From assembly GCA_030917815.1 (NCBI GenBank), contig JAUPTZ010000010.1, forward strand, positions 11,944 through 75,943: a DNA stretch of 64,000 bases. Reading direction: 5' to 3'. Under the pieces are notes generated by a model. The model saw nothing but the letters and a program-made list of their open reading frames with translations. It was not told the DNA's origin and ran no database searches. Numbering within the stretch: position 1 is the stretch's first letter; each line of letters begins with the position of its first letter. This DNA comes from Candidatus Babelota bacterium (GTDB lineage: Bacteria > Babelota > Babeliae > Babelales > JAUPTZ01). This document shows, in pieces, positions 5,777 to 63,771 of the stretch. The translations under genes and the position numbers were made by a program.

Positions 5777-5877
5777 TTACGGGCGTGAAAGCCTAGTTGT
5801 TTCCACGTTTTTTAGTATATGTATCATTCCTAAACCGATGGCAGGTCCGCCTGGCATCATCGAAACGAAACTCAAAC

Positions 5878-29350: not shown

Positions 29351-29554
29351 TTATTCCTTGTCATTACTCTCAGTGACTTCAATAACACTTACCGGACACA
29401 TTTCTGCAGCCTCATCAACCTCTGCAGGATGAGAAGAGACCGCTCCGTGGTTATGCACCCGGGCGGTCCCTTCAACAACAAATACGGCGGGACATATTGC
29501 TTCACACGTGCCACAACTAATGCAGCCGGGAACGATACGTACCTTTTTTGCCAT
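29351..29554 (-). CDS. Single-cluster ferredoxin
   Basis: CISCGTCEAICPAVF ... AAEMCPVSVI. Confidence 0.9.
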   Translation of the reverse strand: MAKKVRIVPGCISCGTCEAICPAVFVVEGTARVHNHGAVSSHPAEVDEAAEMCPVSVIEVTESNDKE

Positions 29555-29557
29555 TAT

Positions 29558-30190
29558 TTATTCCTCGTCTTGCTCATCTTCAGTGCGGCAGCATGGATCT
29601 TGCTTACCACAGCATTCATCGCTGTCATCGCCACACTCTTCATCTGAACACTCATCGTCCAAACAACAGTTGCCTTCAGCTTCTTCTTCTTCCATTTCAT
29701 CGATCGCTTCAATGAATTTTGCAAGGTCGGCGATATTGCCTTCTTCGATAGCCGATTGCCAGTCTACCAATACTTCATTAACACCGCGCTTAAGGCTTAC
29801 CATTTCTTCGGTAGCCCAAGCCTTAAATTCATGCGCATCGGCTTTGAAATCGCCTTCGGTAATCATTTCTTCTGCAACGTCGGCCCACAGAGCGGTATCA
29901 CCGGTCAACGCAACGCGATCAAGCATCTTCTGCCAATCTTCGATTGCATCAACTTCCTGTTGCATCATTTCTTGCAAAGCTTCAAGGCGGCTTGCTGCAA
30001 AGGCATAAATCTCTTGGAGGTCTTCAATAGTTTCTGCGTCTTCGGTTTTATCGCTTTGAGCATCAATTAAAGCCAAAAAACGACCGTATTCGTCTTCACA
30101 AAACTTAACCAGTTCAAGGCTCTGTTGCTTAAAAAAGGCCGCTTGCTCTTGCAATGACGGGAGTAATGAGATGTCGTATGAACGTGCCAC
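29558..30190 (-). CDS. Hypothetical acidic helical protein with Cys/Asp/Glu-rich tail
   Basis: GTG start after AAAGGGGG; tail GNCCLDDECSDEECGDDSDECCGKQDPCC; 3 bp upstream of the ferredoxin. Confidence 0.8.
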   Translation of the reverse strand: MARSYDISLLPSLQEQAAFFKQQSLELVKFCEDEYGRFLALIDAQSDKTEDAETIEDLQEIYAFAASRLEALQEMMQQEVDAIEDWQKMLDRVALTGDTALWADVAEEMITEGDFKADAHEFKAWATEEMVSLKRGVNEVLVDWQSAIEEGNIADLAKFIEAIDEMEEEEAEGNCCLDDECSDEECGDDSDECCGKQDPCCRTEDEQDEE

Positions 30191-31472: not shown

Positions 31473-31552
31473 AAAGCACAGCCCCCACTGAAAAAAAATA
31501 AGGGCTACACGCTATAAAGAAACTAATTAAAAGTCAAAGGCAGAAATTAGTA

Positions 31553-33331
31553 CTAAAACGCCACCAAACAACCGGCATACATATCAACCTCTTTTGGTAT
31601 ATTTTGTCCCGCAAACGTAATAGCTCCGCCAGCGCGAAGACTAAACCAATCAGAAAGGTGATAGGTAATGCCACCTTTAATGCGATGAGCAAATTGTTCG
31701 GTATTTGCTGCGGCAAGATTGTTATCAAGCGCAATGGTGTTTTCAATAGCATAGTCTTTTACACCATCGGTAGGATCATAGAACGCCCCAAGCCACGAAT
31801 CAACCGTTCCTGAACGGAATCGTACCGTATCCTGTCGCTTCCAGTAAAACTGGTAACCGACAAAGCCGGTAATATCGGTCGTATGCGAGTGGCAGAAGTG
31901 CATATCGGCATTCGCAATCACCGAGTGCCAACTAACGTCGGCAAGCTGCTCAGAGCCCATATTTTTAATCAATGATTCGGCCGGGGTGCCACATGTTTTT
32001 TCAGCACGCGCAAGCGCGAAACGATATTCAGTATCAAAATGCATCATCATCCAAGAACGGGTCTCAACGTCAAAATGCATGCCGCCACCGATTTCAACAT
32101 GCCGTCCATTACCGGTATGAGAACGATAAGGATTACCGGTATAATTTGCTTCGTCTGAGCCGCTACCGCATGCGGTCGGCGTACGGAGCAAAGCGCTCAA
32201 GCCACCAACAATGCGGTCTCCAAAATAGTAATCATAGTAGAGTTCAAGATCGATATCTCCAAGACCAAGCTGCCGTGTTGTTTCAAGCACATAGCCACGA
32301 TCATTGAGCCACTCATAGGTGTTAGCATTAAAGGTTGAAACCATATCTTTCATACGAGCATTGATCGTATTTGTTGCACCACTACTCACCTGTGAACCAT
32401 CTGAGTTATGCGTAGACGATATCCAAACCGTTGCCTTTTTATCTTGGTTCTTTACCCGCGTTGGTGTATTTGCCGCAGAAGCTTCAGTAAGCGCAGAGAA
32501 ATCACCGGTGCCAAGGGCATAAATAGTGTCTTCATCAAGGCTTTCAAGGGTTGTCGAAATCGGCGTTGCCGAGAGTGCGGTAGAAGCAAGAATACCCACC
32601 CGTGTTCCACGTGGCACATATCCCTCTGGCGAATAAATCGCTGCTGCTTTACCGGACAAGGTCGTTCCCCCGAAGATACTAATGTAAGTATCTGGGCCGC
32701 TTACCGCAGCATAATCAACTTGCGAAGCGGAGAAATCATTTGTCGGCATTGCTTCAAGAAAATCAAGCCGATACGCAAAACCAAGCGATGAAGACGCTGC
32801 TTCATTTTTTTGAAACTTTGCAACATCTTCTGTTTGCGAATCACGACGCGAGGCGATATCTTTACGCACCGTATCTACTGCTCGTACCGGCACCTTCACA
32901 CGCACGCCCCAACGAGCTTTTCCGCCCATTACTGAACGGGAAACATTCGCAGAAAGACACATACCATTTTCATAGTATTCTACGCGAGGATCAATCTTCA
33001 TGATACGCATATACGGATTATAATGCTCAGTATTTTGCGCTACCGCACAGTGCTCAAAAATATGACTTAAGCGGAACGAATCGGCATTAAAAAAGAGTGT
33101 CGAAAGCTCACCGGTTGCAACACCATGGGAAGCAAATGCACGATGCGCGCTACGACTGTACCAATCAACATCGGCCATTATATACCAGGGAGATTTTTCA
33201 CAAGGATCAAAATCGTGCCCTACATGCCCAACCATTAATGGAGCGCGAAACTCACGCGCACCAACAGTAACGGTACTACATACAGCCATAAACACTCCCA
33301 GCGCTATGTACCGCTCTATTTTTCTTGCCAT
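31553..33331 (-). CDS. Probable outer-membrane beta-barrel protein
   Basis: Signal peptide from ATG 33331 (AGGAAAG RBS); alternating amphipathic strands; GLGDID motif; terminal strand ending in Phe (DMYAGCLVAF). Confidence 0.7.
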   Translation of the reverse strand: MARKIERYIALGVFMAVCSTVTVGAREFRAPLMVGHVGHDFDPCEKSPWYIMADVDWYSRSAHRAFASHGVATGELSTLFFNADSFRLSHIFEHCAVAQNTEHYNPYMRIMKIDPRVEYYENGMCLSANVSRSVMGGKARWGVRVKVPVRAVDTVRKDIASRRDSQTEDVAKFQKNEAASSSLGFAYRLDFLEAMPTNDFSASQVDYAAVSGPDTYISIFGGTTLSGKAAAIYSPEGYVPRGTRVGILASTALSATPISTTLESLDEDTIYALGTGDFSALTEASAANTPTRVKNQDKKATVWISSTHNSDGSQVSSGATNTINARMKDMVSTFNANTYEWLNDRGYVLETTRQLGLGDIDLELYYDYYFGDRIVGGLSALLRTPTACGSGSDEANYTGNPYRSHTGNGRHVEIGGGMHFDVETRSWMMMHFDTEYRFALARAEKTCGTPAESLIKNMGSEQLADVSWHSVIANADMHFCHSHTTDITGFVGYQFYWKRQDTVRFRSGTVDSWLGAFYDPTDGVKDYAIENTIALDNNLAAANTEQFAHRIKGGITYHLSDWFSLRAGGAITFAGQNIPKEVDMYAGCLVAF

Positions 33332-33370
33332 TGAACTTTCCTTTCTTATCAACCGTGCGCTCATCATCAT

Positions 33371-36300
33371 TTATGCAATACAGAAAGCTTCTGGGGCACC
33401 GCTTTTCAGCGATCCACCAGGAGTTGTACCAATAAAATATCCACCATCTAACGAGAGCAGCGGTGATATACCGTTACCAAACTTATCTTTTGCAACCGTT
33501 ACGGGCGTCCGTACAATTAACGCCGATGTTAAATCGACGTTAACGGTCAAATAGGCCGCGGCAACGCCACCAGCAATCTTACCAGCCGGAACAAATTTTT
33601 CTGGATAACCACCATAAATCGGCATACTCAATATGTTATAGAGCTCAATAAGCGCCGCCCCTTGTGTCTCAGGACCACCAGCTGCTCCATCAACGACTGA
33701 GCTTTGAAACGAGTAGTGTATCGGATTGCCAGAAGAATCATTGGTAACACTAATAGTTTCTGTCCCTGTCGGATTAAGCGGCGATCCAGTTGGCGTCGTA
33801 TAACTGTACACCATAAGACTTGGTGCCAATATTGTGTACTTACCGCTATCATCGGTTCCGGTAAGATAGGTCGACGTATTCCAAATACTCAACGGCAACG
33901 GATCATCTTGCGGAATACCGGCATCGACATACACAACGTTACCACCGCCACGAATAAAGGCCTGCGATGGATCACCAATAGTCAGTGTATAGCTACCACC
34001 ATTAATCGCATCAGCTTCATCATCAGCATTGTAATCAAGCGGTCCAATAGCGAGAACAGAGCCGTATTTTGCCGATGCAGAACCATCAAAAATCTGGTTG
34101 TGATCAAAGAATCCACTTGTTATATTAAGCGCAATATTTTTAACATTCCAGAGCGATTGCACTTGCCATGCATTGTATTGATTACCACTTAAATCGGTAC
34201 TAAATGCTGTCGTCGAAGAAGGCAATGTACCGTTTGGATTACCAACTTTATTGACCACACCAGCAGCAAGGCCCATGAATCCTGACCGATCTATATGGCA
34301 CATTGCCGTATCACCATTAAGCGTTAAGGAGAAACTAATATCGGTTGGATGAGCACCAACAACATCTCTACTATTCGTTCCATCGCCACCGCCATCGAGA
34401 ATGTTACCGACTTGAAACGCACCACCAGAACGATTAGCATCACCAATAAGCATCTTCGCTTGTCGCTGAATACTAATGGTTACATCGGTTGTTGGTGTTT
34501 GATAATCGGCTTCAATGCCAACTAATGCATTATCATAAATCGTCAACGTTGCCTGTTTATTGAGCCAAATTTGCCCAATACCCAGAATCTTTGAACGCAC
34601 TTTATCAAACGCCTGCACAGGAGCATCGCTGCTCCAAATCCATCGCGATGCATCGGCCTGCTGATTACTCATGAATACGCATTGGCTGTTATCATTAAAA
34701 TACAATACTGGACCACAGGCATGATTGTCGCTGGTCACCGTACTTGGAAAGCGTATTTTTGCGCCCGGCTCAAGGACCAATTTAGTATAGCCGCTGAATA
34801 CAATCTGCTGAAATGCTGCTGCACCACGGCCAAACGAACTGAGATCAAGCTCTCCGCCTGATAATATTCTAATTTCTCGAGGAACATCTGAGTAGAATAT
34901 TAGCTGATGCGCGGTTGCTCCATTACCAAAATTTTCGGTCGCAATGATCGGTAATTTGTCAGTAATAATGATGTCTGAGTTCAGATCAACAACACCATTG
35001 CCATTGGGATACAAGGTAACCTTATCAAGGCCCAACTGATTCCATGCATTTATCGAATTAGCATTCCAGGCACGATTACCCAGCCCAATCCGTGCGCCAT
35101 GATCAAGGAAAAGCGCTGCATAAGGGCCTTCACCAAGCACCACCGGATCGGAGGTCATGCTTACAAATTCACGTATACGAGAAAATCCGACACCATCGCC
35201 AGAAAGCCATAAATGGAATGGGTTTGCCCGTGTCGCACCAAAGACCAACAGCTGCTCAACCGTGTCACCACTGGTCATCACCAGCATGCCGGAGCTTGGC
35301 ATTGTTACCGGCAACGTCACCGAGTCGGTAGAGCGCGTATGCAAGCGACGCGTATGCGGCCAATGAAACGACGGTGAACGACGATCAATCCCTTTAATTG
35401 GTTCAAAACCGCCCGGTGTTGGGAGCTCATTTACATTAATCGATACAATCGGATTGTTACCAAACTGATTCACTAAGTGAGGTGTCTCATTAGCAACCGG
35501 GTCAAAACCAAATGTTTCCACACGACCATGTGACTGGAAAATAAATTGATCTTCCGGAATAGTCACAAGCCCGGCACCGGCCTGAATGGCGCAGGTTCGT
35601 CGGCCCATTACCGTATCAAGAATCATATCATGACTCCCGCTAGCCGTTATCGTACCACCAAAATTTGCATACACAATACCACCGCTATCGCGCACGCCAC
35701 GAGGTATCAGTTCGTTAGCAGCAGGAGTAATGACACCCTTTGGATTATAGCGACCAGCACCACCAACATAAATATCATCGCCCGCAAACTCTAAAATACC
35801 ACCACCATTCAAATATGGAATAAAGCTGGTTACATCTTCTGGATTGTCAACAATAACAGCCTGTAGAACCTCATCGGAAAATTCCCAAGCGGCAAACGTA
35901 CTATCTACTCTTAAGTGAGTAACCGACGTTGGAACACTTTCAATAACATCGATACTTTGATACTGTCCCGACGGCCAACCAACGTTAATTTGAGAACGGT
36001 CAGAAATATGAATTGCTTGGATCGCTTTGTCAGATACCGTGCTGGCTTCGTGCGCAGTTTCCACAGAAAATTTAATAGTGTTTGTCTCATCACCGGTAAT
36101 AATCAAAGGCGCCGGCATTGGATTTTGACGGTACACATCAACAAATGCATCTCGCAACGAACTCTGCGGGTATACGCCATCGCCAATGGAGAGCGGATCA
36201 AGTGTTTCACCATCGGCCATGGTATTTAATCGAGAGCCAAGCTGAAAATAGCGGCCCATACCACTTAAGGTGAGGTCATACTCGCTACCACGATTGTACA

Positions 36301-38506
36301 TAATAAGATGCGAAGTATTATCGCCAAGTACCCGTATTTGATCATCGGTAAGACCGTCAGTTACGCCACCTTCATAATCAATAACCGAATCGCGAACTAC
36401 CCAGTGCACGCCGGCGCTCACTAAACTTTCATGACACTCAATAGTGCTGTTAACAAGATAAATCGGCGAACCGGTATAATCAAGAACCCAATACGCAGGA
36501 TCTTCAGCAAGACGCTTAGAAATCATCAACGAAGGAAGCTCTCCACCCACAATTGCAGGGTAGGCATCCCCCGTACCAATAAGAGCTACGTTACGACCAA
36601 CATCATTATGAACTAAACGCACCTGATTCAACGTCATGGCATCGTTCACTAACAATTGTGAATTGTTATAACGTAAAAATTGATATCCCTCGAGCGGCAA
36701 AGCACGACCAAAGCCACTACGAAGACCATGATAGTCTTCAGAATACGCAATTTCCTGTCCACGATGATCAATCATTATTGAGGGCATATTGATATAACCA
36801 TTCGGTGCAATTACTTCATCAAAGGTCGTCGTAGAAATTATTGAGACCTGCCCTTCCACATCAATAGCTATCTCCCCAATAAGAGAAATCTCTGGCACAA
36901 TATCACCAAAATCATCGAGCATCATAACGCTAAAGCCATCATACGAGGCCTGCCCAATCGTGCCACCAATATAGGTCCCACTAAATCCTGCATCTCTCAA
37001 CCCATCGGTACCAATAGTAAGACCTACTCCGGCCTCATCGGTTGTGCCAACGGTCAACACTCCGGACACACTGTCGGCTGCAACACGGGCATAGATACCA
37101 GCATTCCCTCGTAAAAATATTTGGGCCACATCGGTAGCATCATATTCGAAAGCAGGATCTTGTGCCGCCGTAGTATTTGTTTTTCGAAAGGCATTCCCAT
37201 CGATAATAAATGCTGATGAATTATGCTGCTTAACTTTATCGGATGCATGAGTGCCATCACCGGTCGTTGCCGATGTAACAACATGCACTCCATCTTTTGG
37301 AAAGTTTTCTAAAGCGGTATTAACGCGACACGCAAAGTAATCAAGAAAACGATTGTTTTCTATTTCTAAAATCCCGTTATTACCCAACACAAAACCATTT
37401 TGTACCGTATTTGCGGCAAACCATTTTGAAGTAATCAACCCACCTTCAAGACTACTCAAATCGCCAGAAAATTGTGCGATCGTTTGGTCATAGTTATTAG
37501 CAAGACGAGGAAACGAATTATTATAGTTCAAGACCACCAATCCACGGCTATTGGTCGGTTCGCTCAAAAACGCACTCAATTCATCAGAATCTGGCTCATA
37601 ACCACTTCGTGCCAACGCATCACTGATACGTACCGCTGCCGCAATACCGGCACGATATTTGTACACCACATTGGTACGCATGTCGCTGGTAACAACCTCT
37701 GCCGAACCAAGACCGGTTGGCTCTACATAACTACCATATATCATGAATGAACCATCGGTGAAATCGGCCGCTTCAGATCCTGCCGTAATCTTAAGAATCA
37801 TACGACCAGTACTGTTATTTGAGGGGTCAAACAACAGTGAACCATAACCATAATCAAGAGCCCCAGAATCATCAACCAAGCCGGACTTATGCTGAGAAAT
37901 AAACGAGACTGAACTGTTTTGACCAACTTCAATAACCGAGTGAAGTGAAGGATCAAGATTGACTCCATGGTCTGTATCGGCACTAAGACTCCAGCGAACA
38001 AAAGAAAGCTGCGATGAGGCTTGCATTTGCGCTAACGTTTGCTCCATAAGAATGCGAAGATGAGCACCATTCAAAGTAATATTTTTTCCACATGGCAAAC
38101 GAAATCGAACCTCTCCTTTTCCGCGAACACCAATATACAAAGGCCTATAGGTTGCATCGGCACCACTGCTTTGAAAGATCAAGTCATTAAGCACCTGTAC
38201 TTCAAGTACTGAGCCGGCCGAAAAGACATCGAATAATAGTATCGAATCTACTTCACTACCTGGTTGAATGGTTACCGCTCCAGACGACGGTGTTGCACCA
38301 ATTTTTACTATCGCAGTGGCGGCGTCACCAACCAGCGAAATCACACGATCGCCGGTCAAAGAAATGGTACCGCTATTCATGGTCAACACATTCCCATCGA
38401 CTAACTCGAAATCTGCAGAGCCGTTAAAAGCGGTTGCTAAAACATTACTCCCCAGAGCAAGCCCTATTATTAGTGTCACAATACATGTTTGCAGCATTTT
38501 TTTCAT
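33371..38506 (-). CDS. Large exported beta-rich protein (modules A+B+C)
   Basis: Signal peptide MKKMLQTCIVTLIIGLALGSNVLA from ATG 38506; G/S/D/N/T-rich; colinear similarity to the 1181, 886 and 6297 aa neighbours. Confidence 0.88.
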   Translation of the reverse strand: MKKMLQTCIVTLIIGLALGSNVLATAFNGSADFELVDGNVLTMNSGTISLTGDRVISLVGDAATAIVKIGATPSSGAVTIQPGSEVDSILLFDVFSAGSVLEVQVLNDLIFQSSGADATYRPLYIGVRGKGEVRFRLPCGKNITLNGAHLRILMEQTLAQMQASSQLSFVRWSLSADTDHGVNLDPSLHSVIEVGQNSSVSFISQHKSGLVDDSGALDYGYGSLLFDPSNNSTGRMILKITAGSEAADFTDGSFMIYGSYVEPTGLGSAEVVTSDMRTNVVYKYRAGIAAAVRISDALARSGYEPDSDELSAFLSEPTNSRGLVVLNYNNSFPRLANNYDQTIAQFSGDLSSLEGGLITSKWFAANTVQNGFVLGNNGILEIENNRFLDYFACRVNTALENFPKDGVHVVTSATTGDGTHASDKVKQHNSSAFIIDGNAFRKTNTTAAQDPAFEYDATDVAQIFLRGNAGIYARVAADSVSGVLTVGTTDEAGVGLTIGTDGLRDAGFSGTYIGGTIGQASYDGFSVMMLDDFGDIVPEISLIGEIAIDVEGQVSIISTTTFDEVIAPNGYINMPSIMIDHRGQEIAYSEDYHGLRSGFGRALPLEGYQFLRYNNSQLLVNDAMTLNQVRLVHNDVGRNVALIGTGDAYPAIVGGELPSLMISKRLAEDPAYWVLDYTGSPIYLVNSTIECHESLVSAGVHWVVRDSVIDYEGGVTDGLTDDQIRVLGDNTSHLIMYNRGSEYDLTLSGMGRYFQLGSRLNTMADGETLDPLSIGDGVYPQSSLRDAFVDVYRQNPMPAPLIITGDETNTIKFSVETAHEASTVSDKAIQAIHISDRSQINVGWPSGQYQSIDVIESVPTSVTHLRVDSTFAAWEFSDEVLQAVIVDNPEDVTSFIPYLNGGGILEFAGDDIYVGGAGRYNPKGVITPAANELIPRGVRDSGGIVYANFGGTITASGSHDMILDTVMGRRTCAIQAGAGLVTIPEDQFIFQSHGRVETFGFDPVANETPHLVNQFGNNPIVSINVNELPTPGGFEPIKGIDRRSPSFHWPHTRRLHTRSTDSVTLPVTMPSSGMLVMTSGDTVEQLLVFGATRANPFHLWLSGDGVGFSRIREFVSMTSDPVVLGEGPYAALFLDHGARIGLGNRAWNANSINAWNQLGLDKVTLYPNGNGVVDLNSDIIITDKLPIIATENFGNGATAHQLIFYSDVPREIRILSGGELDLSSFGRGAAAFQQIVFSGYTKLVLEPGAKIRFPSTVTSDNHACGPVLYFNDNSQCVFMSNQQADASRWIWSSDAPVQAFDKVRSKILGIGQIWLNKQATLTIYDNALVGIEADYQTPTTDVTISIQRQAKMLIGDANRSGGAFQVGNILDGGGDGTNSRDVVGAHPTDISFSLTLNGDTAMCHIDRSGFMGLAAGVVNKVGNPNGTLPSSTTAFSTDLSGNQYNAWQVQSLWNVKNIALNITSGFFDHNQIFDGSASAKYGSVLAIGPLDYNADDEADAINGGSYTLTIGDPSQAFIRGGGNVVYVDAGIPQDDPLPLSIWNTSTYLTGTDDSGKYTILAPSLMVYSYTTPTGSPLNPTGTETISVTNDSSGNPIHYSFQSSVVDGAAGGPETQGAALIELYNILSMPIYGGYPEKFVPAGKIAGGVAAAYLTVNVDLTSALIVRTPVTVAKDKFGNGISPLLSLDGGYFIGTTPGGSLKSGAPEAFCIA

Positions 38507-38586
38507 ATAAACTACCCTTTTAAAAACAATACGCCGCAAACATGATAATCGAGGCTATCGCGAAGGTGTCAATGAAACCGCAATTT

Positions 38587-41500
38587 TTATCGTCGACTCG
38601 ATGATCTAACCCGCTTCCTCTGACGCGCTCGCCCCTTTACTTGCACTAAAGTTGGAGACTGCATCGGTTTACCAGTCGCAAAATACGGAGAGTTTTTCGG
38701 TATGACAATGTAACCTGCATAGTCGCCACTAGTTTCGGCCGCCGCAGAAAAATCGGCTCCATATCCCTGCACTCGCCCATTCTCAGCTAATATAATTTGA
38801 TCGGGTGGCATAGTAACGGCACCGGCCAGAGACCCGTTGCCAAGCGCCGCAGCTATGGTCGCGTCAAGCACAAAGTCTTTATGCTCATCGGCCCGCAAGG
38901 TGCCGCCAAAATCAACATAGAGAATCCCGCCCTGATCAATAGTCTTAACCGGATGGCGCGGCGGAAGCCCATTCGACATGCGAGAGCCTAAGCATAAGTT
39001 GTCACCAGCAATGCGTAAGGTACCACCACCGGTTGCTCCTGGATCAAATTTCTTCGTCTCATCAAACGTTACCCCACTCAATGGAATCGTCCATGGGGAA
39101 TAATTATCAGTAGAGCCAAATGACGTAGGCCATCCAATATTCATGCGTGATTGATGTGCAAGAAACAATATCTGCGTTGATCTGTCTTTAGCAGAAATCC
39201 CCGATTCACCAGCGGTCTGCAATGCTAATTCAATCGTTGATGGCTGAAGCATCGTCGCGCCAGGAGTTAACGCGCTACGATAAATATCAAAAAATCCATC
39301 GCGCAGCGAACTCGTAGTCTGCACGCCGTCAGAAGAAAGCTGCACAGAAGCGCTCAACGTACCATCGCTCATACGATTTGCAATCGATCCCAGTTGAAAT
39401 ACCGAGCCACGGCGGCGACCGGAATCATGAGTACGGCCCCGTTGATACAGTATTAATGCTGAGCTATTATCCCCGTTAGCAGTATCGCTCCCGCCATCCG
39501 CACTATCATTTTCGTGAACGTTCCAGCGAACACCGGCACTCACCAGCGATTCTTGGCAGGCAATAATACTATTGCATAACGAAATTGTTGGACCCCAAGT
39601 ATCACCAAAGAGCGTAGAGCGCTCACCGCCAATAATAGTTGGTAATGCACTCGTAGTTACGCTAGGCAATTGCATTTTCCCTAAATTACGCGAAACATCA
39701 CTCTGTATATACCAAACATTATGCAAATGAGTCGGTGCATTCACTAAAATTGATGACGAATTATAGCGCCCATATAACGCATTTTTCGTTAATGGTCGTA
39801 TACCATAGAGCGGATGCTCTGACGGTGCCGATACTTGACGTGCCGCACTGTGTGATGACTGCGCAAAAAAGGCATCACCACTAGCTTTTAGATGATTTAA
39901 AAAGAGCTGCTGAACCAATGCCAATGGCGGAAATACGGCAGGCAATAGACCAGAATCACTTGTCTCATACCAGGTACCACTTACAAAATTGTAAGCCCAT
40001 TCAACAAAAACACCTTTCCCATCAAGGAAAACTTGCCAACGACCAGTAGACGCATTATACGTCCATTCATCGAAGTTTGGCGTGTACATCCATGAATTTG
40101 AACTATCCTGCTGTGTCCATTGTATGGAACTATCGCCAGCACTAACCCAATATGGCGATATGCCATCAAAATAATACCAAGAATTAACCGTAGGATCGCC
40201 ATCACGAACCCAACAGTTATGTAATGTCGTATAACGCCAGCACGCAGTATCAAACACCCAGACCCACTCGCCACTGGTGTCATTGTAGCGTACTTGATTT
40301 TTCCCAGAACTATCGGTCCAGTAATAAGAATAGCCTTTTCGAACATCATAGGTCGCCCGGCCATTGCCAAAGCTATCACTACCAACCCATGCCTGCGCAC
40401 CCGAGGCCCAGCTCATGAGTGGTGAAGTGTCAAATGCATGAGCATTGATCAAGGCTCTCATCACCTGATAAGTCATTATGAATTGCGTAAGAGGACGTGG
40501 CAGGATAAAGCCGCCAGGAAGTGACGACCATCTATTGGCAATAAAGTCATAGGTAGATGAAGTGTAGCGATCAGTAGTTGGGTGGTACGTCGTGCTTCCA
40601 AGCCGCGCACCGCTAAAACGATGCCCATTATACCTATAACGCCACTGTTCTTCAGCCGACAAACTGGTCCACCTTGTGGTCGCGGGGTTATAGCTCCAAG
40701 CATCGCTCTCATCAAGATTGTTTTGCCACATCAACGTACTACTATCATAGGTAAACGATTCAGGACGATAAGGATTCAAATAATTCTCCCATACCCACGA
40801 ACCGTCAGTAGAAAGCGAAAACTGCACTCTATCATCGATCCAGGACGGCTCATCAACCGCTTTAAATGAAACGGTAATCTGATGTGATGATTGTGTACTA
40901 TCATAAGAAATCCTCATCCTATTGCTTTCGTTTGCACCCAACCAGGTTCCGTCATCTTGCCGCTCAAACGTTAAATCGGTCACTCGACCAAATGAAATTC
41001 CAGGTTCTCCAATCACCGCATCAAAGACGGTGCTGATAACGGTCGTTTGGCGCACTACTGAAGGAGGTTGGAAATCGGTGAGATCTTCGGGCGGCGTACC
41101 GGTTACTAAATACCATGTCAGCGATGGTTCATCGTAACGCCATACCGAAGCATCGCCATTCGCCAATAAAGCACCCCATGAACAGGTAAGTGGCTCATAG
41201 CGCCAGGTAATGTCATTGTGCACATCATACCAGGTTGCGCTTAAAGGCGTATAACGCCAATCGGCAGTAACATCTTCCGGATGAGCCGAATCATAGTGCC
41301 CCCATATTTTAAGATCATTACTACTACTCAGTAGCTTCCACGAATCATGGCTAGGCCCCGCAAGCACGTGCGTTGTAGTATTATACGTCCAGGTTTTTGT
41401 TGAAATCTCAAGCTCCTGCACCCATGTCCATGCACCGGTACTAGGATTATAGGTCCAATGAACTGAGGAATCATCAGTTTCAGAAGTAATGGACGGAGTC

Positions 41501-53500: not shown

Positions 53501-56500
53501 CACAACCAAGAAACAGAACCACCACCCCCGAGATCATACACCCAATGCCCAGTCGCCGTATCGAATGACCACACTTGGCTGCCACCAACCGTATGAGTCC
53601 ATATCTTCGCTCCGGCATCATAGACCCAGACCTGGCTTCCACCAACATTAGACCAATGACCAGTATCGGCGTTGTAGTTATAAGCAGGACTTTCGCTTGC
53701 CGCAGTGTACCAGGAGCTATAAGCAGTCCTCATGTTATAAGAGAAGCGAACATCGGGTGTTGCACCTAAATCATTACCGTTATTACGCCACGCAATAGAG
53801 GCATAAGAATCATCTCCTGATACCGTAAGCGTTGCATAATCATCAAAATATCCTCCGGTCATTTTCCAATGGCCCGCAGAGGTTTGAGTGACTACACAAA
53901 GATCAACAAACACCGTATAAAGGGTATCAAGAATTGCTTTCTGCACAGCTACAAGTGGTGGTAGCCCATGCTCCGGCTCACCCTCATACGCCGATATCTG
54001 CTGCCAACCGCCGGCCAGCGCTAAGTAGCGCCATACCCACGTGTGAAGACCATCATCATAGGACCAATGACCATTTGATGGAGCATATGTCCAAACAGCA
54101 TCCCCGTCATTTTGCGTCCATTGCAACGCATTGACATCGGACCGCCACGTTGTTATCTCATCGGAGCCGGTCCAAGTATTCGTATCGGCATCATACGACC
54201 ATTGCTCACCAGTTTGAAAGTCCATCCATAATCCAGGACCAGAGTTGTACTGCCATGTTTCAGGCCAGCGCGAATCAACCGAACGTTCCCACGTAAAATC
54301 GCCGGTTTCCATAGTATACGACACTAAAGAAACAGCCCCTTCAAGAAAAGCATAAGCCCCCACAGAACTCCCCTGAATATCACCGCTAATCGTGTTGTAG
54401 GTAGCGGTAAAATCGGCAGCGCTATTAGTAGCAGTATAGATACCAGAGATTGGATTTCCCACGATCCAATCGGCTTTTCCACTTTCAGCAAGAACACCAT
54501 CAGATAAAAATTCATTATATACATGACGACTATAGAGCTGCTGCACCAATGGTAACGGAGGCGTACGACTTGGTAGAGATGCACCATACGACAAAGCTCG
54601 CCACGGGCTACTTGAAGCGGTTAAGTCATACAGCCATTCGGCATTTCCATCAACATCAATCCAAACCCCTTTGCGTGAATCCCAAAGCCAATGAACACTG
54701 GAACCGGTACTCGTCCAGTAGCCGGTAGTATCATCAAAATTCCAAATTTGGGAGCCGCCATGAGTCTGCGTCCACGTTTGAGCCAATGAGTCATAATGCC
54801 AAATGAGACTACTTGCAGCATCGTGCCATATACCGGTACTACCAACATACACGGAGGATGGACTACCACCAGATCCGATATACCAAGAGCTATCCCCAGT
54901 GCTTACAACATGACTGTAATGAGCATCTGGCGTAGTACCCAAATGGTGCCCATTATTTCTCCATGCGATAGTTGCTGAGGCACCACCACTCGGTACCGTG
55001 AGCGTTGCATGGTCATTAAAAATTCCGCCGGCCAGCGTCCATTGTGCAGCAATTCCGGAACTCGCACCGTTGTCGGTAACGGCCGACAACATGCTCACGG
55101 CATTCCACAAAGAATCAATAATCGCTTTTTGCACCACAACCAATGGCGGCAACCCTGTTGCCGGTTCACCGTCATACAAAGATACTTGCTGCCACGTGCC
55201 AGCAAGAGCCAAATATGACCATACCCAGGAACGCTCACCATCATCATAAGACCAATATCCTAATGATGGAGCATACGACCATACCGCATCACCATCATTC
55301 TGTGACCACTGCATAGTAAGCAAGTCCGATTGCCAAGTCGTTGAGCCACTATCAGGGCCGGTCCATGTATTTGTAGCCGGGTCAAAAGACCAATATTCAC
55401 CGGTCTGTCGGTCTGTCCATCTATGTGTTGTACTGGCATATACCCAGGACTCTGGCCACTCTGGATCGACCGTTCGTGTCCAAGTAAAATCACCATGCTC
55501 TATGTCATAAGAAGTTAAGGCGACCGCAGCATCAATACAACCAGTGTCACTCACCGACTGGCCCTGCACAATGCCTGACACCGTATTGTAGATCATCGCA
55601 AAATCGGCCGACCCATTTACAAGAACGTACTCACCAGCATCAAGATTACCCACAGTCCAATCGGTCGTACCAGTTCCTGCAAGAATACCGGCTGCAAGAA
55701 ATTTATTCACAATATTACGTATAAAAACCTGCTGCAACCAGGCTCGCTGAGTATCACCAGCCGTCGGATCAAATCGCAAAAAATCTCCATCAGTTGCGAC
55801 CCACAATGAATTTTGAGGCCGCCAGAACCACTGGTTTGGCAAAGAATCATTCCACAGGCCAAGTGTACCGTCATACATAAATGCTGCACTTCCTCCGACA
55901 GTCTGGTGCCAGCCTTTAGTCTCAACAACGTAGTGAAACACGCTACTATCACCCGAAGTCGCCCACAAAGAGGTAGCCCCATCAAAGGTATAATCCGGAT
56001 TTGCTCCGCCAGGAACATTCCATCCGTAACTACCGGTTGCTAGGTTATACGAAAAAGTCGCATCAGGAGTTGAGAGTAAGTCATCTCCTTTATTCCGCCA
56101 TGCAATAGTCGGAGCGGAGCCGTCTGCAGGTACAGTTAAAAGTGCATAATCATTGAAAAGTGCCCCACGCAACTCCCAGGTCGTACTGCTCGTTTCGGTA
56201 ACCGAATATTCATTCCCAAAAACGGTGCGAATTGATTGGACGATAGCCCTTTGAGCAACAACAAGAGGTGGTAGCCCGCTAGCCGGCTCACCATCATGTA
56301 CAGATACTTGCTGCCAACCACCAGCCAGCATCATATAGCGCCAAACCCAAGCATGAACACCGTCATCATATGACCAATGACCATCAACCGGTGTATAGGT
56401 CCAAACGGCATCACCATCGTTCTGTGACCACTCAAGACCAAAAGCATCTGACTGCCATGACTCATCTCCTGGCCCGGTCCATGTATTGGTAGAAACATCA

Positions 56501-57480: not shown

Positions 57481-60137
57481 GAAAGAACTCCATTATTTTC
57501 TTGCCCAGTATAATCAATACGAATCGAAGGCAATGTTATATAACCATTAGGAGGAAACCCAAATCGGCCAATCACCGACACTATGCTAAATTCACCCTCA
57601 ATATCAAGTACATGCTCACCATCTAAACAACGAGGCCCATCATCATCCATTAAAAAGGGATTTCCTGCGCGATCAATCCAAATCGATTCTGCATGAGATT
57701 GCACTCCGTTAACATCAAGAACCGGACAGAATGTACCGTCGTACACGCCAACACCAATCGTTGCGTCCAACGTCTCGGCGCCAGTATCACTATCGGTATC
57801 AAGCACATTGTCGATAACGCCGGAATCCCATGATGCACCACAACGGAAATAGCATCCAGCAGTGCCCTCAAGCACCATTGTTCCATAACTCGTACCAGCA
57901 TATGTCATATCGTACGAAGCATCGACTGATGCTCCATACACGCCAAGCTGATCAACAATAAACGCTGACGGATTATGTAATTTAACGGTAGCCGAAGTAG
58001 CATCAGCTCCACCAAGTTGCAAAGGATCAACCGCTTGGTTTATTGCACCGGCGACATAATCCAAAAACAAATTATGCCCCACTCTAAGCTGACCATTATC
58101 ACCAAGAATAAAACCGGGTTGATACCCTTTTTGTTTTTGTGACGGCGCCCAATCACTCGTCTCAAGTGATGAAGCATTCGAAAGATTTGAAGCGAGATAC
58201 GGATAGGTTGTATTATTGTTAACTATTACCAGACCACGACGATCATTTGGCCCACGAGCAACCCAGCCAGCAGCATCGTCATCAATATTTTCCACTAAGG
58301 TGCTAAATGCGAGGTCATCGGTAATGCTCAGAACAGCCAGCATACCGGCACGCTTATGAGGGTACACTTTTGTACGTAAATCAGAGGTGGTCACTACAGA
58401 ATCTTCACCCGTACCAACAATCAGCGATCCCCAAATATTTATACCGGCATCATAACCAAGACCAGGGATTACACCGGGCGCTAGATCAAGAATAGTACGT
58501 CCGGTTCCAGCGTGGCATACATCAAACGCCAGCGCACCATATCCAGCAATAGAATCATCAGTGCCGGTTGCATTATAAGAAATGAATCGCAGCGATGATG
58601 AAGTGCCAAAACGAATCCAAGTGGTTTTGTTTGTAGCAGTGTTCCTCGCACCCTCATCATGAGAATCCTCTTGCGCATAACTCCATGGCTCAAATATCAC
58701 CTGCTGCATTCCAATACTAATATCATCAATATCTAAATCCATAAGCACTTGCACACATACACCAACCGATGAAGAATCGGCCGATTCAGGACCAAATGAG
58801 AGAGTAACTCCGGACGGCAACCGAAATATCGTTGTACCTTTCCCCCGAAACGTAATGAGCAGCGGCACCGTAGCACTTGCCTGGAAATACACGTTATTAA
58901 CTACATCAATCTCAAGTGTTTTGCCCGAGACAACATTAAAAATAAGGTGTGCATACGTCGCATCATCACTTGGCTTAATAACTACATCATCAGAAGAGTC
59001 ATCACCAAGGGTCAGTACCGCATCGCTTTCAACTAATAACTCAATATCACCAGACAAGGTAACGGTATTGGTCATTATCATCTTGGTAACAAAATCAAAA
59101 ACAAAAACGCCTCCCTTAAACAAAGAATTTTGTGTTTCATCAATAAATCCAGCACCGGTACCATCATCGCTGCCAAACCGAACACCTTCATCTGAAAGAG
59201 TTGCCAAAGCATGGTCAATTACCGCCTTGTATTGCGCAAAAGGTGTTGGCAAAAATAACGGGACAATCTCGACCGGATCAATAGTCAAATCGCTCGCATT
59301 GTGCCACAAGTAATCATCATTACTATAATGCCATAGCTGCAGTAATCCGGTCGCTGGTGGTGAAATTGCGACGGTCCGCGATGTCCATACACCAATTGAT
59401 AATGTTTGCATCCAACGCACATAATCCCAGCCACTAGGCGGTACATTTCCGACAATATTCCATTGGGACTGTGTATCGGTCATGCGCTCAAAGCGCCACC
59501 ACTCGCCAGTAACTAAACTTTTCCACTGACCATTAGCATTGTCTGAACGATACATCCACGATGAACCGGTAATCGGATCATTCTGTGACCAAATCTGTGT
59601 TGATGGTTGAAATGTCCACGTTTCATCAACCGGAACAGTCGGTGGCGCACCCACACTGCGGACAAAGTGCCACTCATCGGTATCGGAAAGATATTGCCAA
59701 TACGCCACAGGAAGACTTACAAAGCTATAGTGCCCCCCCGAGAATGAGCGCCTAACAGGATGCCATCGCTGCGTCTCGTCATCAAGCGCCCATACCTGAT
59801 TTACAATAGCATTTGATGTTGTAAGATCATAGGAAGATTCAAAGGTATTAACCCACACACGATACGTATCATCATATATCCATCGCTCACCAGTTTGATA
59901 ATCTTGAAAAATTCCGGAATCAGCGTCAAAGGCCCATAGATTAGATGTTGCAATATCAAGCCAAGTCCACGCACCATTCTCTATCGAATACTCCCAAATA
60001 CTCGTTGCATTAGAATAAGAAACAGTACCGGCATCATTGTCAATCGCAAGACCAGTAGAGCCAGTGAGCATGCATCCATACATGCACATAAAAAACAGTA
60101 TCTTTAATGGAGAGATCACTCTCATACTACACCTCAC
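57477..60137 (-). CDS. Exported protein: Trp-rich N-terminal region plus module A only
   Basis: Signal-like N-terminus (start may be ATG 60125); Trp-rich first ~310 aa; then PLLITFRGKGTTIFRLPSG, GYGALAFD, RRGLVIVNNN, PSIRIDYTGQE; ATGA overlap with the giant gene. Confidence 0.88.
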   Translation of the reverse strand: MRCSMRVISPLKILFFMCMYGCMLTGSTGLAIDNDAGTVSYSNATSIWEYSIENGAWTWLDIATSNLWAFDADSGIFQDYQTGERWIYDDTYRVWVNTFESSYDLTTSNAIVNQVWALDDETQRWHPVRRSFSGGHYSFVSLPVAYWQYLSDTDEWHFVRSVGAPPTVPVDETWTFQPSTQIWSQNDPITGSSWMYRSDNANGQWKSLVTGEWWRFERMTDTQSQWNIVGNVPPSGWDYVRWMQTLSIGVWTSRTVAISPPATGLLQLWHYSNDDYLWHNASDLTIDPVEIVPLFLPTPFAQYKAVIDHALATLSDEGVRFGSDDGTGAGFIDETQNSLFKGGVFVFDFVTKMIMTNTVTLSGDIELLVESDAVLTLGDDSSDDVVIKPSDDATYAHLIFNVVSGKTLEIDVVNNVYFQASATVPLLITFRGKGTTIFRLPSGVTLSFGPESADSSSVGVCVQVLMDLDIDDISIGMQQVIFEPWSYAQEDSHDEGARNTATNKTTWIRFGTSSSLRFISYNATGTDDSIAGYGALAFDVCHAGTGRTILDLAPGVIPGLGYDAGINIWGSLIVGTGEDSVVTTSDLRTKVYPHKRAGMLAVLSITDDLAFSTLVENIDDDAAGWVARGPNDRRGLVIVNNNTTYPYLASNLSNASSLETSDWAPSQKQKGYQPGFILGDNGQLRVGHNLFLDYVAGAINQAVDPLQLGGADATSATVKLHNPSAFIVDQLGVYGASVDASYDMTYAGTSYGTMVLEGTAGCYFRCGASWDSGVIDNVLDTDSDTGAETLDATIGVGVYDGTFCPVLDVNGVQSHAESIWIDRAGNPFLMDDDGPRCLDGEHVLDIEGEFSIVSVIGRFGFPPNGYITLPSIRIDYTGQENNGVLS

Positions 60138-60225
60138 CGTGCCGTACTGTTCGCCTCCCCCACGTCCTTGCAGTAAAGATAGGATTGATGCTCACTTACT
60201 TGTCAACGATCTCTTAATCACCACG

Positions 60226-63200
60226 TTATTTTATCGGCTCTTCATCAGAAGTTTCATACAACTCAGGAACATCAACGCTGTGGATTTTATCCACAACCGA
60301 CATCACAATATTGTTTGCATACGGCCCATCGATGTTTTGATCGGTAGTAAAATCAATACCATAATCTTGGATGGAACCGTTAGCTAAAAAATAAACCTGA
60401 TCTTCTGGCGCAATAATAGTCCCGGTCGCGGCTAGCAATCGAGCTTTGAGCCGACCCACAACCGTATCTATGAACAAATCGGTAGTGCTGGTAACTGATA
60501 ACGTACCACCACAATTTACATAGACAACACCATCAACATCCATGCCTGGAATTGGACGCTCTGGCGGCAGTGCATCAATACTATCACCGGCCCCTATACA
60601 AAATGGACCACCGTTAAAAAGTAACGCTCCACCACCGGTTTCGTACGGGCTAAAGCGAAACATTTTACTATTTGCCGGATCAACATCCTGCAGTTGCTTC
60701 AGTACCACATCATCCATCATCGCCGGCAAATAGCCACTATCACCCTCAAGCGTTGGCCATCCCAAATGAATCTGAGAACCGTTCGCCAGATAGAGTGAAT
60801 GAAGTGCCCGATCAGCACTCGTCACCGTTCGCTCTCTATCAGAATCTATATAAAGGCGAATTGTTGTTGGACTATCAGGAGGAATATTACTTGCAACCAA
60901 AGCAGATGTTGGTGCAGCACGATATACATCAAGAAAAGCCGAACTATACAATAAATTCGTCGTCACTTGATCAGACGCAACGTTAGCTTGGCTCCCTAAT
61001 TGAATTACGCGACCATAGCCATTTTTATCATACTCACGCCCACGGTTATAACAGATAATATGTGAAATATTATTAGCAAGACTGAGTGAACTGCTTGAAC
61101 CAATATCATACTCTTGCACCGTTATCGCCGCACCGGTTACCACCAATGACTCGTGGCAATCAAGCACGGTGTTGTACAGCTTCAAGAGCGGTGGATATAA
61201 ATCATTTTGCAAACTTGCAAGCTCACCACCGACAACATGAGGCAATGCCTCGGTAAATGGACGTGGTAAAACCTCGGGCGCATTAAGCTTACGGGTTACA
61301 TCGGCATGAATCCAATTAACCGAATCGAATATTAAATCTGCATTCAAGAAAATAGTGGATTTATCGTACACCGAATAATATTTTGCAGAATAAAGAATCG
61401 GAGATGAAGTATCAGGAATAGCTGCTGTTGTAGGAAGCGGTCGCACAACCGTTGTATCATCGGAACTATCACCAGAAGTACCATCAACCGTAACCGCCTG
61501 CGCAAGATTAATAGAGGTGAGGCTGTCAAACGAAAACGACGTTCCACTTATCGGCAAATAAACAGTCTGGGGCTGGCCACCAGCATTAGTAAGCCATGAT
61601 TGCCACGCTGCCCATTGCTCAAAATTCGTGTACCCAACCTCTCTGCCGGTATGATCAATTTCAATCGAGGGAACAGAGAAAAATCCTGCGGCCACTTCCC
61701 CGCGAACTCCTGATTGCGAGACAATAGACAAAGGGCCTTCTACATCAAGCGCATGCACTCCATCAAGCTCAGTTGTTTGCATCACCGGTTGGTTGTAGAC
61801 ATCGGTGATCGCAACAAAATTTCCATCATAAAGACCAATTCCTAACGTTACCGTAAGGGCCTGAGTATCGCTGCCGGAACCGACCGTATCCAAATAATAA
61901 AATTCTTTGGTATAAGGCTGCAAGAAGAGATTTTTAACGTATGCACCTGAATCATTCGGTGCTGCCGCGCGCACAAAAAAACCGGCATCGCCCTGAAGTA
62001 TTACCGTGGCTCGCGCTCCTCCTGCATATAAGATGTCACTAATAGGTGAACCCCATTGATCGAGTTGATGAGAAGAACGACGTGGAAAGGTTGGCAATGT
62101 GCTGGTATAAAAAGCGGCCGGATTATGTTTTTTTACCAAATCAGGCGTATATATAGAAAGATCGGCATGGGCCGATGAAATCTCTCTATTAAAGTTATTT
62201 GCTATGTAATCAATAAACGTATGTGGCTGCACTTCAATTTGACCATTCACTCCTAAATTAAACCCAGGCTCATAATCATTAAATATTGCCCACGCAGAAT
62301 CATCGATACGGGCCGCATTCTCATAGTTGTTAGTAAAATGAGGAATAGAGTTGTTGTGATTAATAATTACCAATCCACGTCGATCACTAATCGGACGAGT
62401 AAGCCAATTTGCTGGCGCATCAAAGAGATCTCCATCGGACGCTACAACGCGCTCATAGTAAGAAACTTCATCGGTCACCCGAAAAAGTGCGGCCACCCCA
62501 GCACGCTGATTAAACCAAACATTGTTACGAAAGTCGGCATTCAAAATAATGGCCTGCTTTCGGCTAGAACTCGGAACGCGTGGCTCTAGCAATGCACCAT
62601 AAATATTAAATCCTGCATCGGTAAAATCATTTCCTGCCGGATCTTGTCCCGCACATAGTTGCAAAATCATGCGACCGGTGCCGGCACTGGAAGGATCAAA
62701 CGATACCGAGCCATAGCCGGGCTGAAATAACACTTCCGATAAACTCTCATGCCCATCGGCAATTACGGCATCATTCCATGTTTCTGAAATGCCCAAGTAA
62801 TTATCTGAAACAAACACAAATGAAGACAACTGTCCCCAGGTAATCCACGTGTCTAGACTTAAGTCGGCATTCACTTCATTAACACCGTAGCTCCACTTGT
62901 CAAAACAAAGTTGTTGCCGTGGCGCCACAATGGTATCACCATATCCATCAACCACATCGATTGGCCCAGAACCGCTACCATACGCATCAATGTACCCTTG
63001 TTCCATGTACACACGAACATGAACGCCGGCCGTGCTGAGCGGTGAATCGGCAGGCACCGAGTCGAACGCAGTATGACCAGGATTTGGTGGCCCAAAGCGA
63101 AGCCTTGCACCAGATGGAAAAAGAAACACTGTGCTTCCACGCCCACGAAATGTAATATAAAGTGGTATTGGCGCACCAACCGAGTGAGTATCTGAAGGAT

Positions 63201-63771
63201 TATAGCCACCTAATGCATCAACACTTTGAAATTCAAGATCGGCATACATATTCACTAGAATAGTTTTACCTTCTGCTGGGTTAAAAATAAGTTGTGAATA
63301 CCCATCAACCGTTGTTGCGCCGTCGGTATAGGAAGACACAACGACTGGACTCACCGAGTCAAGAACAAGAGACCCGCCTGAACCTGAATTAGTAGCACCA
63401 ATGTTGATGGTGAAGATTTCAGGCGCTATCTGCGGCATGCCACTATCATCAAGTGTTGGTGCCGATCCAGTAAACCGAATTTCGACATCCCCTTTAATAG
63501 AAACCGATTTTACAATGTTAAGCGTATCACCGGCATGCGGCTTAAAAATACCGTATTGAGTCACCGTTGAAGTGTCAGGCAAGGTAAACGTATCGGCAGT
63601 CGAGAGAAAAACCGCATTGTTATCAGCAATAAGATTGCCGGATGAATGCCCGTTCCACGCACCACTCGTCAACCCCCATGTATACGAAGTTCCGTTAATA
63701 GCCGATGTACAACCAATCAGAAAAATTAGAAGAAAATACGCTTGACGTTTGATAATCATTGCCACGCTCAC
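60226..63771 (-). CDS. Large exported beta-rich protein (modules A+B)
   Basis: Signal peptide (start may be ATG 63759); PLYITFRGRGSTVFLFPSG, GYGSVSFD, RRGLVIINHNN, PSIEIDHTGRE, CHESLV, GRVIQLGS, IHLGWP. Confidence 0.88.
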   Translation of the reverse strand: MSVAMIIKRQAYFLLIFLIGCTSAINGTSYTWGLTSGAWNGHSSGNLIADNNAVFLSTADTFTLPDTSTVTQYGIFKPHAGDTLNIVKSVSIKGDVEIRFTGSAPTLDDSGMPQIAPEIFTINIGATNSGSGGSLVLDSVSPVVVSSYTDGATTVDGYSQLIFNPAEGKTILVNMYADLEFQSVDALGGYNPSDTHSVGAPIPLYITFRGRGSTVFLFPSGARLRFGPPNPGHTAFDSVPADSPLSTAGVHVRVYMEQGYIDAYGSGSGPIDVVDGYGDTIVAPRQQLCFDKWSYGVNEVNADLSLDTWITWGQLSSFVFVSDNYLGISETWNDAVIADGHESLSEVLFQPGYGSVSFDPSSAGTGRMILQLCAGQDPAGNDFTDAGFNIYGALLEPRVPSSSRKQAIILNADFRNNVWFNQRAGVAALFRVTDEVSYYERVVASDGDLFDAPANWLTRPISDRRGLVIINHNNSIPHFTNNYENAARIDDSAWAIFNDYEPGFNLGVNGQIEVQPHTFIDYIANNFNREISSAHADLSIYTPDLVKKHNPAAFYTSTLPTFPRRSSHQLDQWGSPISDILYAGGARATVILQGDAGFFVRAAAPNDSGAYVKNLFLQPYTKEFYYLDTVGSGSDTQALTVTLGIGLYDGNFVAITDVYNQPVMQTTELDGVHALDVEGPLSIVSQSGVRGEVAAGFFSVPSIEIDHTGREVGYTNFEQWAAWQSWLTNAGGQPQTVYLPISGTSFSFDSLTSINLAQAVTVDGTSGDSSDDTTVVRPLPTTAAIPDTSSPILYSAKYYSVYDKSTIFLNADLIFDSVNWIHADVTRKLNAPEVLPRPFTEALPHVVGGELASLQNDLYPPLLKLYNTVLDCHESLVVTGAAITVQEYDIGSSSSLSLANNISHIICYNRGREYDKNGYGRVIQLGSQANVASDQVTTNLLYSSAFLDVYRAAPTSALVASNIPPDSPTTIRLYIDSDRERTVTSADRALHSLYLANGSQIHLGWPTLEGDSGYLPAMMDDVVLKQLQDVDPANSKMFRFSPYETGGGALLFNGGPFCIGAGDSIDALPPERPIPGMDVDGVVYVNCGGTLSVTSTTDLFIDTVVGRLKARLLAATGTIIAPEDQVYFLANGSIQDYGIDFTTDQNIDGPYANNIVMSVVDKIHSVDVPELYETSDEEPIK

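Follow-up and report, generated by a model that had tools for sequence, protein, structure and literature searches.

A conserved gene pair coding for a predicted beta-helix protein and a predicted outer-membrane barrel in Dependentiae, expanded to four paralogues in one genus

Genes of the locus

The window analysed here is a stretch of 64,000 nt from a Candidatus Babelota bacterium (assembly GCA_030917815.1, contig JAUPTZ010000010.1, positions 11,944 to 75,943 of the forward strand). Between positions 31553 and 63771 it carries five minus-strand genes, g1 to g5, which a first-pass annotation of the sequence had described as a co-oriented cluster with gaps below 100 bp. Open reading frames (ORFs) lie exactly where it had placed them; g1 and g2 are separated by 88 bp, g2 and g3 overlap by 4 bp, 47 bp separate g3 from g4, and g4 and g5 abut (0 bp). 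The genome, 98 % complete, comprises 1.2 Mb on 17 contigs. A search of sequencing runs listed the stretch in five DNA runs, four of them possibly from the source sample, and in no RNA run. Two of the five genes, g4 and g5, form a unit conserved among the sampled Dependentiae genomes, all of one order, and linked through module C at the C-terminus of g4. The pair may be a two-gene means of placing a large protein on the cell surface. The genes and the modules of g4 are as follows.

60226-63771, minus strand: g1, 1181 aa; signal peptide, N-terminal part specific to the genus (1-133), then module A (134-711), module B (799-1181)
57477-60137, minus strand: g2, 886 aa; signal peptide, N-terminal part rich in Trp (about 1-340) and related to the repeats of g3, module A (347-880)
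38587-57480, minus strand: g3, 6297 aa; signal peptide, some 15 Trp-rich units of about 390 aa in tandem, then module B (5903-6260) and a tail rich in Lys and Arg
33371-38539, minus strand: g4, 1722 aa; signal peptide, modules A-B-C
36740-38422, minus strand: module A of g4
35390-36682, minus strand: module B of g4
33374-35389, minus strand: module C of g4
31553-33370, minus strand: g5, 605 aa; signal peptide, conserved mature N-terminus (R/K)EFRAPL, 12-stranded outer-membrane barrel (model)

The stop codon of g4 occupies 33371-33373 and g5 has a signal peptide of its own, so that the pair is made as two polypeptides. The N-termini of all five proteins, judged by eye, have the basic stretch, hydrophobic stretch and small-residue site of a signal peptide, as the first-pass annotation had it, and the pattern recurs in orthologues of g1, g4 and g5. 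A lipobox-like motif (LIGC) had made g1 a candidate lipoprotein; this assignment was dropped because six g1 orthologues have ordinary signal peptides without LIGC.

Modules were defined by BLASTP among the five proteins. Module A is shared by g1, g2 and residues 44-596 of g4 (E 3e-54 to 5e-71), and module B by g1, g3 and residues 623-1049 of g4 (E 1e-43 to 2e-48); g1 and g4 match overall at E 9e-89. The paralogy of g1–g4 is far above chance, and the earlier claim that four of the genes share modules A and B is borne out across the whole range, E 1e-43 to 9e-89. Module C comprises residues 1050-1722 of g4, at its C-terminus, and is absent from g1, g2 and g3.

Searches of Pfam and NCBIfam with g1, g2, g4 and g5 returned 0 families at E ≤ 0.1, and Pfam returned 0 at E ≤ 0.01 for both halves of g3; the sole rows were LolA_like, below threshold (E 0.025), and comparable noise. 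Among PDB sequences, profile searches with module A, modules B+C, module C and the Trp-rich repeat gave nothing meaningful, nor did phmmer with the barrel. A comparison of module A with B+C by hhalign found no relation (probability 2.4). The first-pass annotation had noted no POTRA, TPS, autotransporter, RTX or T9SS motif, and no such family was matched in Pfam or NCBIfam. It had also held that its reading would fall if the modules belonged to a characterised family; no module has such a match by sequence. Named homologues of the proteins of the locus are hypothetical proteins of ‘Candidatus Dependentiae bacterium’.

The g4–g5 pair: linkage, co-duplication and predicted folds

The main sample comprised 101 genomes of the same order, in which module C was searched as a profile. 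Of these, 66 have the barrel and 62 have module C, every one of the 62 being among the barrel carriers; the four genomes with the barrel only have module C as weak partial matches (E 1.6e-5 to 6e-4). Module C and the barrel lie on one contig, on one strand and less than 2 kb apart in 57 of the 62, in the order C then barrel in 56, and in the remaining five the two matches fall on different contigs of fragmented assemblies. A barrel unlinked to the paralogues in other genomes had been named by the first-pass annotation as a result that would count against it; the linkage found is the opposite. Thirteen loci from other genomes, picked because both matches were already known, were read gene by gene. 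In all 13, fewer than 135 bp separate the end of an A-B-C gene of 1365-1998 aa, the passenger gene, from the barrel gene that follows, and passenger and barrel are always split. The flanks of the pair are unrelated housekeeping genes that vary by family: a DegT-family aminotransferase, thymidylate kinase, DNA polymerase III delta' and an ABC sugar transporter.

A phylum-level sample had module C in 64 of 121 genomes, all 121 being labelled as the same order, and is therefore uninformative on other orders. A library-wide profile search gave 414 module C representatives, with the module at the C-terminus of the protein in the best 150 of the 414. The conserved unit in the sampled genomes is only g4 and g5, via module C. 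The reading of the first-pass annotation thus stands in part and does not extend, on these data, to a heteromeric system of five genes: g4 and g5 are conserved, whereas g1–g3 are a genus-only expansion without module C. At G050:C2:440125-443715 the module C region, with stop codons and frames of 54-171 aa, and the barrel, with a frame of 262 aa, both look degraded, and the pair may decay together.

A second barrel is found in the same genome (G000) on contig C5. It has 621 aa, is 30-34 % identical to g5 depending on the aligner, and is followed directly by an 1181-aa protein ending in module C.

L003:12838-18258, minus strand: second pair, contig C5 of G000; order reversed, barrel then module-C protein
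L003:825-6254: third module-C protein, 1809 aa; contig C5, 10 kb from the second pair, with a weak Trp-repeat match near the N-terminus

All five genomes of the genus carry the reversed second pair, its module-C protein measuring about 1190 aa. Trees built by maximum likelihood from 32 barrels and from 32 C modules have the same main groups, and in both the second pair of the genus is sister to the first, with Shimodaira–Hasegawa-like approximate likelihood-ratio test support of 99 for the barrels and 90 for module C. Co-occurrence, adjacency and co-duplication of the two genes are thus supported directly. Two tandem barrels occur at three loci (L026, L027 and L046). At locus L045 (G067:C1:48501-63000), a single barrel has three A-B-C genes in tandem upstream of it, with C modules that are nearly identical; the passenger gene was amplified independently there.

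The last gene of the cluster had been called a barrel with a terminal Phe, and both parts of that call agree with the present data. The protein ends in ...AGCLVAF (of the 19 barrels aligned, 9 end in F, 8 in L, I or M, 1 in Y and 1 in C). An AlphaFold2 (AF2) model from the alignment of 19 barrels has 12 long strands, a predicted local distance difference test score (pLDDT) of 85 and a predicted template-modelling score (pTM) of 0.77. In a structural search, run all against representatives with Z scores (VIA), the top match was the COG4313 channel 4rl8_A (Z 24.5, root-mean-square deviation 2.2 Å, 261 of 267 residues aligned, model range 46-605), followed by FapF 5o65_A (Z 23.1, 255 residues aligned). 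Autotransporter beta-domains scored lower (Hbp Z 17.4, NalP 16.9, BrkA 16.9, EstA 16.5, AIDA-I 16.2), as did the porins KdgM, VhGalP and NanC (Z 15.9-16.6). Foldseek with g5 found FapF at E 5e-9. On this modelling, g5 is predicted to be a 12-stranded outer-membrane barrel of the COG4313/FapF class and not a new fold.

The sole N-terminal helix of the model, at residues 4-31, corresponds to the signal peptide; the first strand begins at residue 62, leaving about 22 residues in between. The mature N-terminus (R/K)EFRAPL, right after the signal peptide, is kept in most of the 19 aligned barrels, and in the model alignment it aligns with the N-terminal region of the templates, including the lumen-inserted segment of COG4313. 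In the excerpted account of that channel, the N-terminal segment occludes the lumen (PMC4493636). By the author's strand assignment on the AF2 model, the periplasmic turns are of 2-6 residues and the extracellular loops include L1 of about 54 aa, L2 of about 195 aa (approximately residues 170-364) and L5 of about 47 aa. At 605 aa, against 267 aa for COG4313, g5 has about 300 extra residues in surface loops, modelled at pLDDT of about 78-91.

Module C is the best-conserved part of g4. An AF2 model of g4 residues 601-1722 from 14 sequences has pLDDT 67.7 and pTM 0.70, its best part being approximately residues 1080-1430 of g4. With this model Foldseek returned nothing at E ≤ 0.001; the weak rows were led by the passengers EspC, Ag43, Hap and SepA (E 0.016-0.04) and also included IgA1 protease, VacA and pertactin. 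Over model residues 408-1062, structural search matched module C to an SRRP adhesin (Z 12.1), Fap2 (10.8), Ag43b (10.3) and Vag8 (9.8), the matches coming from a part of the model at pLDDT 75-94. Polygalacturonase, pectate lyases, alginate lyases and tailspikes scored Z 8-10, and TPS domains 7.4-8.3. The leads in the ESM Atlas features of g4 were all below 0.9: beta-strand repeat 0.86, pertactin region 0.84 and Chlam_PMP 0.79. Invariant columns in module C are mostly Gly (13 of 23), with one invariant Glu. Module C is thus modelled as a generic right-handed beta-helix, the fold of type V passengers but not diagnostic of type V. The suggestion of a new surface or export system therefore survives in that no known sequence family covers the pair, but not as regards fold, as the barrel falls into the known COG4313/FapF class and module C is a generic beta-helix.

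Expansion within the genus and neighbouring features

Outside the pair, the locus is a feature of the genus. The complete five-gene synteny recurs in the same-genus genome G018, where the split between g2 and g3, with the g2 stop overlapping the g3 start by 4 bp, is identical. The stand-alone g1, g2 and g3 were found only in the same genus. The A and B modules of g1 occur in 31 of the 101 same-order genomes, and beyond the genus solely within the single gene beside the barrel, as its A-B part. Besides itself, g1 has 14 orthologues at 42-63 % identity.

The Trp-rich repeats are common to residues 1-340 of g2 and 1-5900 of g3. The latter is 6.3 % Trp overall, and in its 390-aa unit invariant Trp residues recur at a spacing of about 9, forming two blocks of some ten each, often as (Y/F)D..T..W. 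The open frame of this giant has 6297 aa at this locus, against 8612 aa in G018 and 1600 aa in G036, so that the repeat number changes quickly among genomes of the same genus. The C-terminus of g3 (38587-38640) is a strongly basic tail, ...KGRARQRKRVRSSSRR; g1 and g4 have no such tail after module B. Modelling gave no reliable structure for modules A and B or the Trp repeats; the ESM Atlas model of g2 was poor (pLDDT 0.36, best template-modelling score 0.26). Three further features were mapped at the locus.

42793-56778, minus strand: the 12 best-kept Trp-rich units of g3, 43-55 % identical to the reference unit
38545-38572, minus strand: promoter-like site in the g3-g4 gap, 10 of 12 matches (consensus match)
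31476-31510, minus strand: terminator-like hairpin of 14 pairs with a T-rich tail, between the g5 stop and the next gene (consensus match)

The promoter-like site would permit separate transcription of g4 and g5. By consensus matching, the number of terminator-like hairpins in the region is not above that in shuffled sequence. Directly after the hairpin lies g6 (30282-31472, minus strand), an orphan of 396 aa that has a signal peptide and a composition of 11 % Arg and 3.8 % Cys. It was considered as a member of the system and rejected: the terminator-like hairpin precedes it, and no counterpart was found downstream of the barrel in 15 other loci. Cys-rich proteins (8.6-9.3 % Cys) stand at the post-barrel position in some other clades (L029 and L030). 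Further downstream, a 210-aa Glu-rich ORF (29558-30190, minus strand) is weakly similar to ORFs right after the barrel in L023 and L024 (E 1e-6 and 1e-5; 21-22 % identity), a resemblance that may be compositional; a plus-strand ORF at 29508-30008 overlaps and competes with it.

Export, anchoring and the rival explanations

Gene linkage and fold suggest that g4 and g5 are a cognate two-gene outer-membrane unit, and it is from these two lines that a function in export or anchoring is inferred. By analogy with known systems, the pair is judged to have about an even chance of being a split autotransporter or FapF-like system that exports or anchors g4. In outline, g4 would be exported by Sec and g5 inserted by the beta-barrel assembly machinery, for which the genome has a BamA-type Omp85; g5 would then act as the outer-membrane translocator and/or anchor for g4, and g4 would fold as a beta-helix outside the cell, to serve as an adhesin or host-contact fibre. 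The gene order of passenger followed by 12-stranded barrel would copy the domain order of an autotransporter, as two polypeptides, and a separate barrel serving a separately encoded substrate would follow the FapF precedent. On this reading, the passenger gene was copied and shuffled within the genus, giving g1 (A-B), g2 (Trp-rich part and A) and g3 (15 Trp-rich units and B). Since these three lack module C, it is probable that they ride on g4 or bind it by way of the A and B modules they share. The surface location, the passage through the barrel, the binding and this role of g1–g3 all belong to the proposal.

The closest functional precedent is FapF, for which the published text excerpted here reports experiments showing that a polypeptide encoded by another gene is exported through an autotransporter-like barrel of 12 strands (PMC5557850). 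The g5 model resembles FapF (PDB 5o65/5o67) in being a barrel of 12 strands that carries a segment at the N-terminus, which in FapF is occluding, and in both cases a separate barrel gene adjoins the gene of a Sec-exported partner; the partner of FapF forms stacked beta structure outside the cell. Unlike FapF, g5 has no sequence-family match and no N-terminal periplasmic coiled coil, nor room for one, the coiled coil being described as a FapF feature in the same excerpts (PMC5557850). Unlike in the Fap operon, FapA-E genes are absent and no C39-type (FapD) peptidase families occur in g1–g5. The partner here is a 1365-1998-aa beta-helix protein (model) instead of an amyloid subunit of about 250 aa, and g5 has its roughly 300 extra loop residues. 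The COG4313 channel Pput2725 (PDB 4rl8) is structurally the best match, with an alignment that includes its lumen N-terminal segment. It differs in length, as given above, in its family, PF13557, which did not match g5 (Pfam, E ≤ 0.1), and in genomic context, which here is a giant secreted protein and not degradation genes.

Type Va autotransporters (EspP, Hbp, Ag43, pertactin and the chlamydial Pmps) share the order of signal peptide, beta-helix (here module C as modelled) and 12-stranded barrel, and the corresponding structural scores are Z 16-17 for g5 against beta-domains and Z 8-11 for module C against passengers. In contrast to them, passenger and barrel are here two genes with a signal peptide each, PF03797 does not match g5, and g5 is structurally nearer to COG4313 and FapF. 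PF03797, the autotransporter beta-domain, had 0 matches in the whole genome, with control genomes matched. The same search with PF13557 also had no match, but its control matched in no genome and the result is uninformative. Two-partner secretion (type Vb, TpsA/TpsB) is similar in pairing a large beta-helix exoprotein (here a predicted one) with a dedicated barrel, as two genes that duplicate as cognate pairs. However, TpsB is a 16-stranded Omp85 with POTRA domains and TpsA has an N-terminal TPS domain, whereas g5 has 12 strands and no periplasmic domain, the barrel-linked module is C-terminal, and no POTRA, ShlB or TPS family was matched. The only Omp85 gene of the genome, of BamA type, is on another contig than the locus.

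Several points weigh against export through g5. Its best structural match is a presumed small-molecule uptake channel: COG4313 is proposed, in the excerpts of its description, to take up hydrophobic small molecules (PMC4493636). On the model, g5 has no periplasmic domain, neither POTRA nor a FapF-type coiled coil, that could recognize a substrate. The beta-helix matches of module C are moderate (Z 8-12) and generic, with lyases and tailspikes scoring beside adhesins. The exit of g1–g3 from the cell is unexplained by the model, as they have no module C. A search among proteins of 1093-3120 aa found none in which passenger and barrel are fused, which is weak evidence. The mirrored trees are suggestive only, because adjacent genes co-duplicate whether or not their products touch, and the evidence that couples g4 to g5 is all genomic. 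Additionally, three secretin genes (C6:142655-143143, C5:66482-66955 and C5:71616-72080, contigs of G000) mean that a type II route is available to the giant proteins; the two C5 genes are some 12-17 kb away from the closest module-C gene in the second cluster.

The last of these points leads to a rival in which the giants cross the outer membrane by type II secretion and g5 is an anchor only, its loops, above all L2 with about 195 aa, docking module C and holding a surface layer or fibre on an outer membrane devoid of lipopolysaccharide (LPS). Besides the secretins, the extracts of the TM6 genome paper report type II components among the core genes (PMC4776705), and the difference between 605 and 267 aa falls, by the author's strand assignment, in extracellular loops. 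Strict pairing and co-duplication are as compatible with a pair joined by binding as with one engaged in transport. Nevertheless, this explanation is considered unlikely. Type II secretion handles folded proteins, and beta-helix fibres of 1400-6300 aa are not typical substrates; the conserved mature N-terminus aligned with the lumen segment of COG4313 suggests a gated channel and not a passive anchor. Somewhat less probable still is an uptake unit, in which the barrel would be a substrate channel for hydrophobic molecules, as in COG4313, or for oligosaccharides, as in KdgM, and the beta-helix protein would bind or cut a host polymer and feed the channel. The structural ranking, headed by COG4313 and including KdgM, VhGalP and NanC, would suit it, as would the matches of module C to polygalacturonase, pectate and alginate lyases and tailspike depolymerases (Z 8-9.9), and the genome literature, in the parts drawn on here, states that Dependentiae depend on imported host nutrients (PMC6561590). 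However, the mostly Gly invariant columns of module C, with their single Glu, look structural rather than catalytic, no glycoside hydrolase or lyase family was matched, PF13557 does not match the barrel, and a size of 1400-2000 aa with repeat-number variation up to 8600 aa is more adhesin-like than enzyme-like.

Two other explanations carry little weight. A periplasmic envelope scaffold, in which the giants stay in the periplasm and, through the barrel, tie the outer membrane to the cell wall in place of lost tethers, would accord with the loss of LPS and outer-membrane components reported for the lineage in portions of the genome papers (PMC4776705, PMC6561590), yet it is very improbable: the periplasmic turns of 2-6 residues in the author's strand assignment offer almost nothing to bind, no peptidoglycan-binding family was matched, and the length variation of the giant within the genus (1600, 6297 and 8612 aa) is typical of exposed proteins. 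The possibility that g4 and g5 are neighbours by descent only, without a functional link, has nothing in its favour beyond the genomic nature of the coupling evidence and is rated as barely credible, given a barrel in 62 of 62 module-C genomes, adjacent and on the same strand in 57, with flanks that differ between families, a second pair kept with reversed order, and the G050 pair apparently degraded together.

The pair bears on how Dependentiae attach to and enter their protist hosts. In this respect the genome papers, in the text excerpts used, name type IV pilus or type II genes and ‘surface antigens of unknown function’, and nothing further (PMC4776705, PMC6561590). No description of the g4–g5 pair was found in the literature; the supplementary tables of PMC4776705 and PMC6561590 lay outside this search and might list the genes as hypothetical proteins. 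Conserved across the sampled Dependentiae and duplicating as a unit, g4 and g5 are the best candidate for a surface apparatus, and the system is only two genes.

If the barrel exports its neighbour, the pair would link autotransporters, FapF and COG4313 channels, which are now treated separately; it would mean that a barrel of 12 strands can act in trans for a giant passenger, and would bear on the debate over how passengers cross the outer membrane. A wider and more tentative proposal, on balance doubtful, is that Dependentiae hold a further, undescribed type V-like branch, in which a POTRA-less barrel of the COG4313/FapF class exports and holds giant beta-helix proteins via module C. This would be the main surface or host-entry apparatus of LPS-poor protist parasites, grown in the genus to a heteromeric fibre of four paralogues, with the Trp repeats of the 6297-aa protein possibly a new repeat fold. 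The pair looks like an undescribed two-gene way to display adhesin-like proteins on the cell surface, expanded at this locus to four paralogues.

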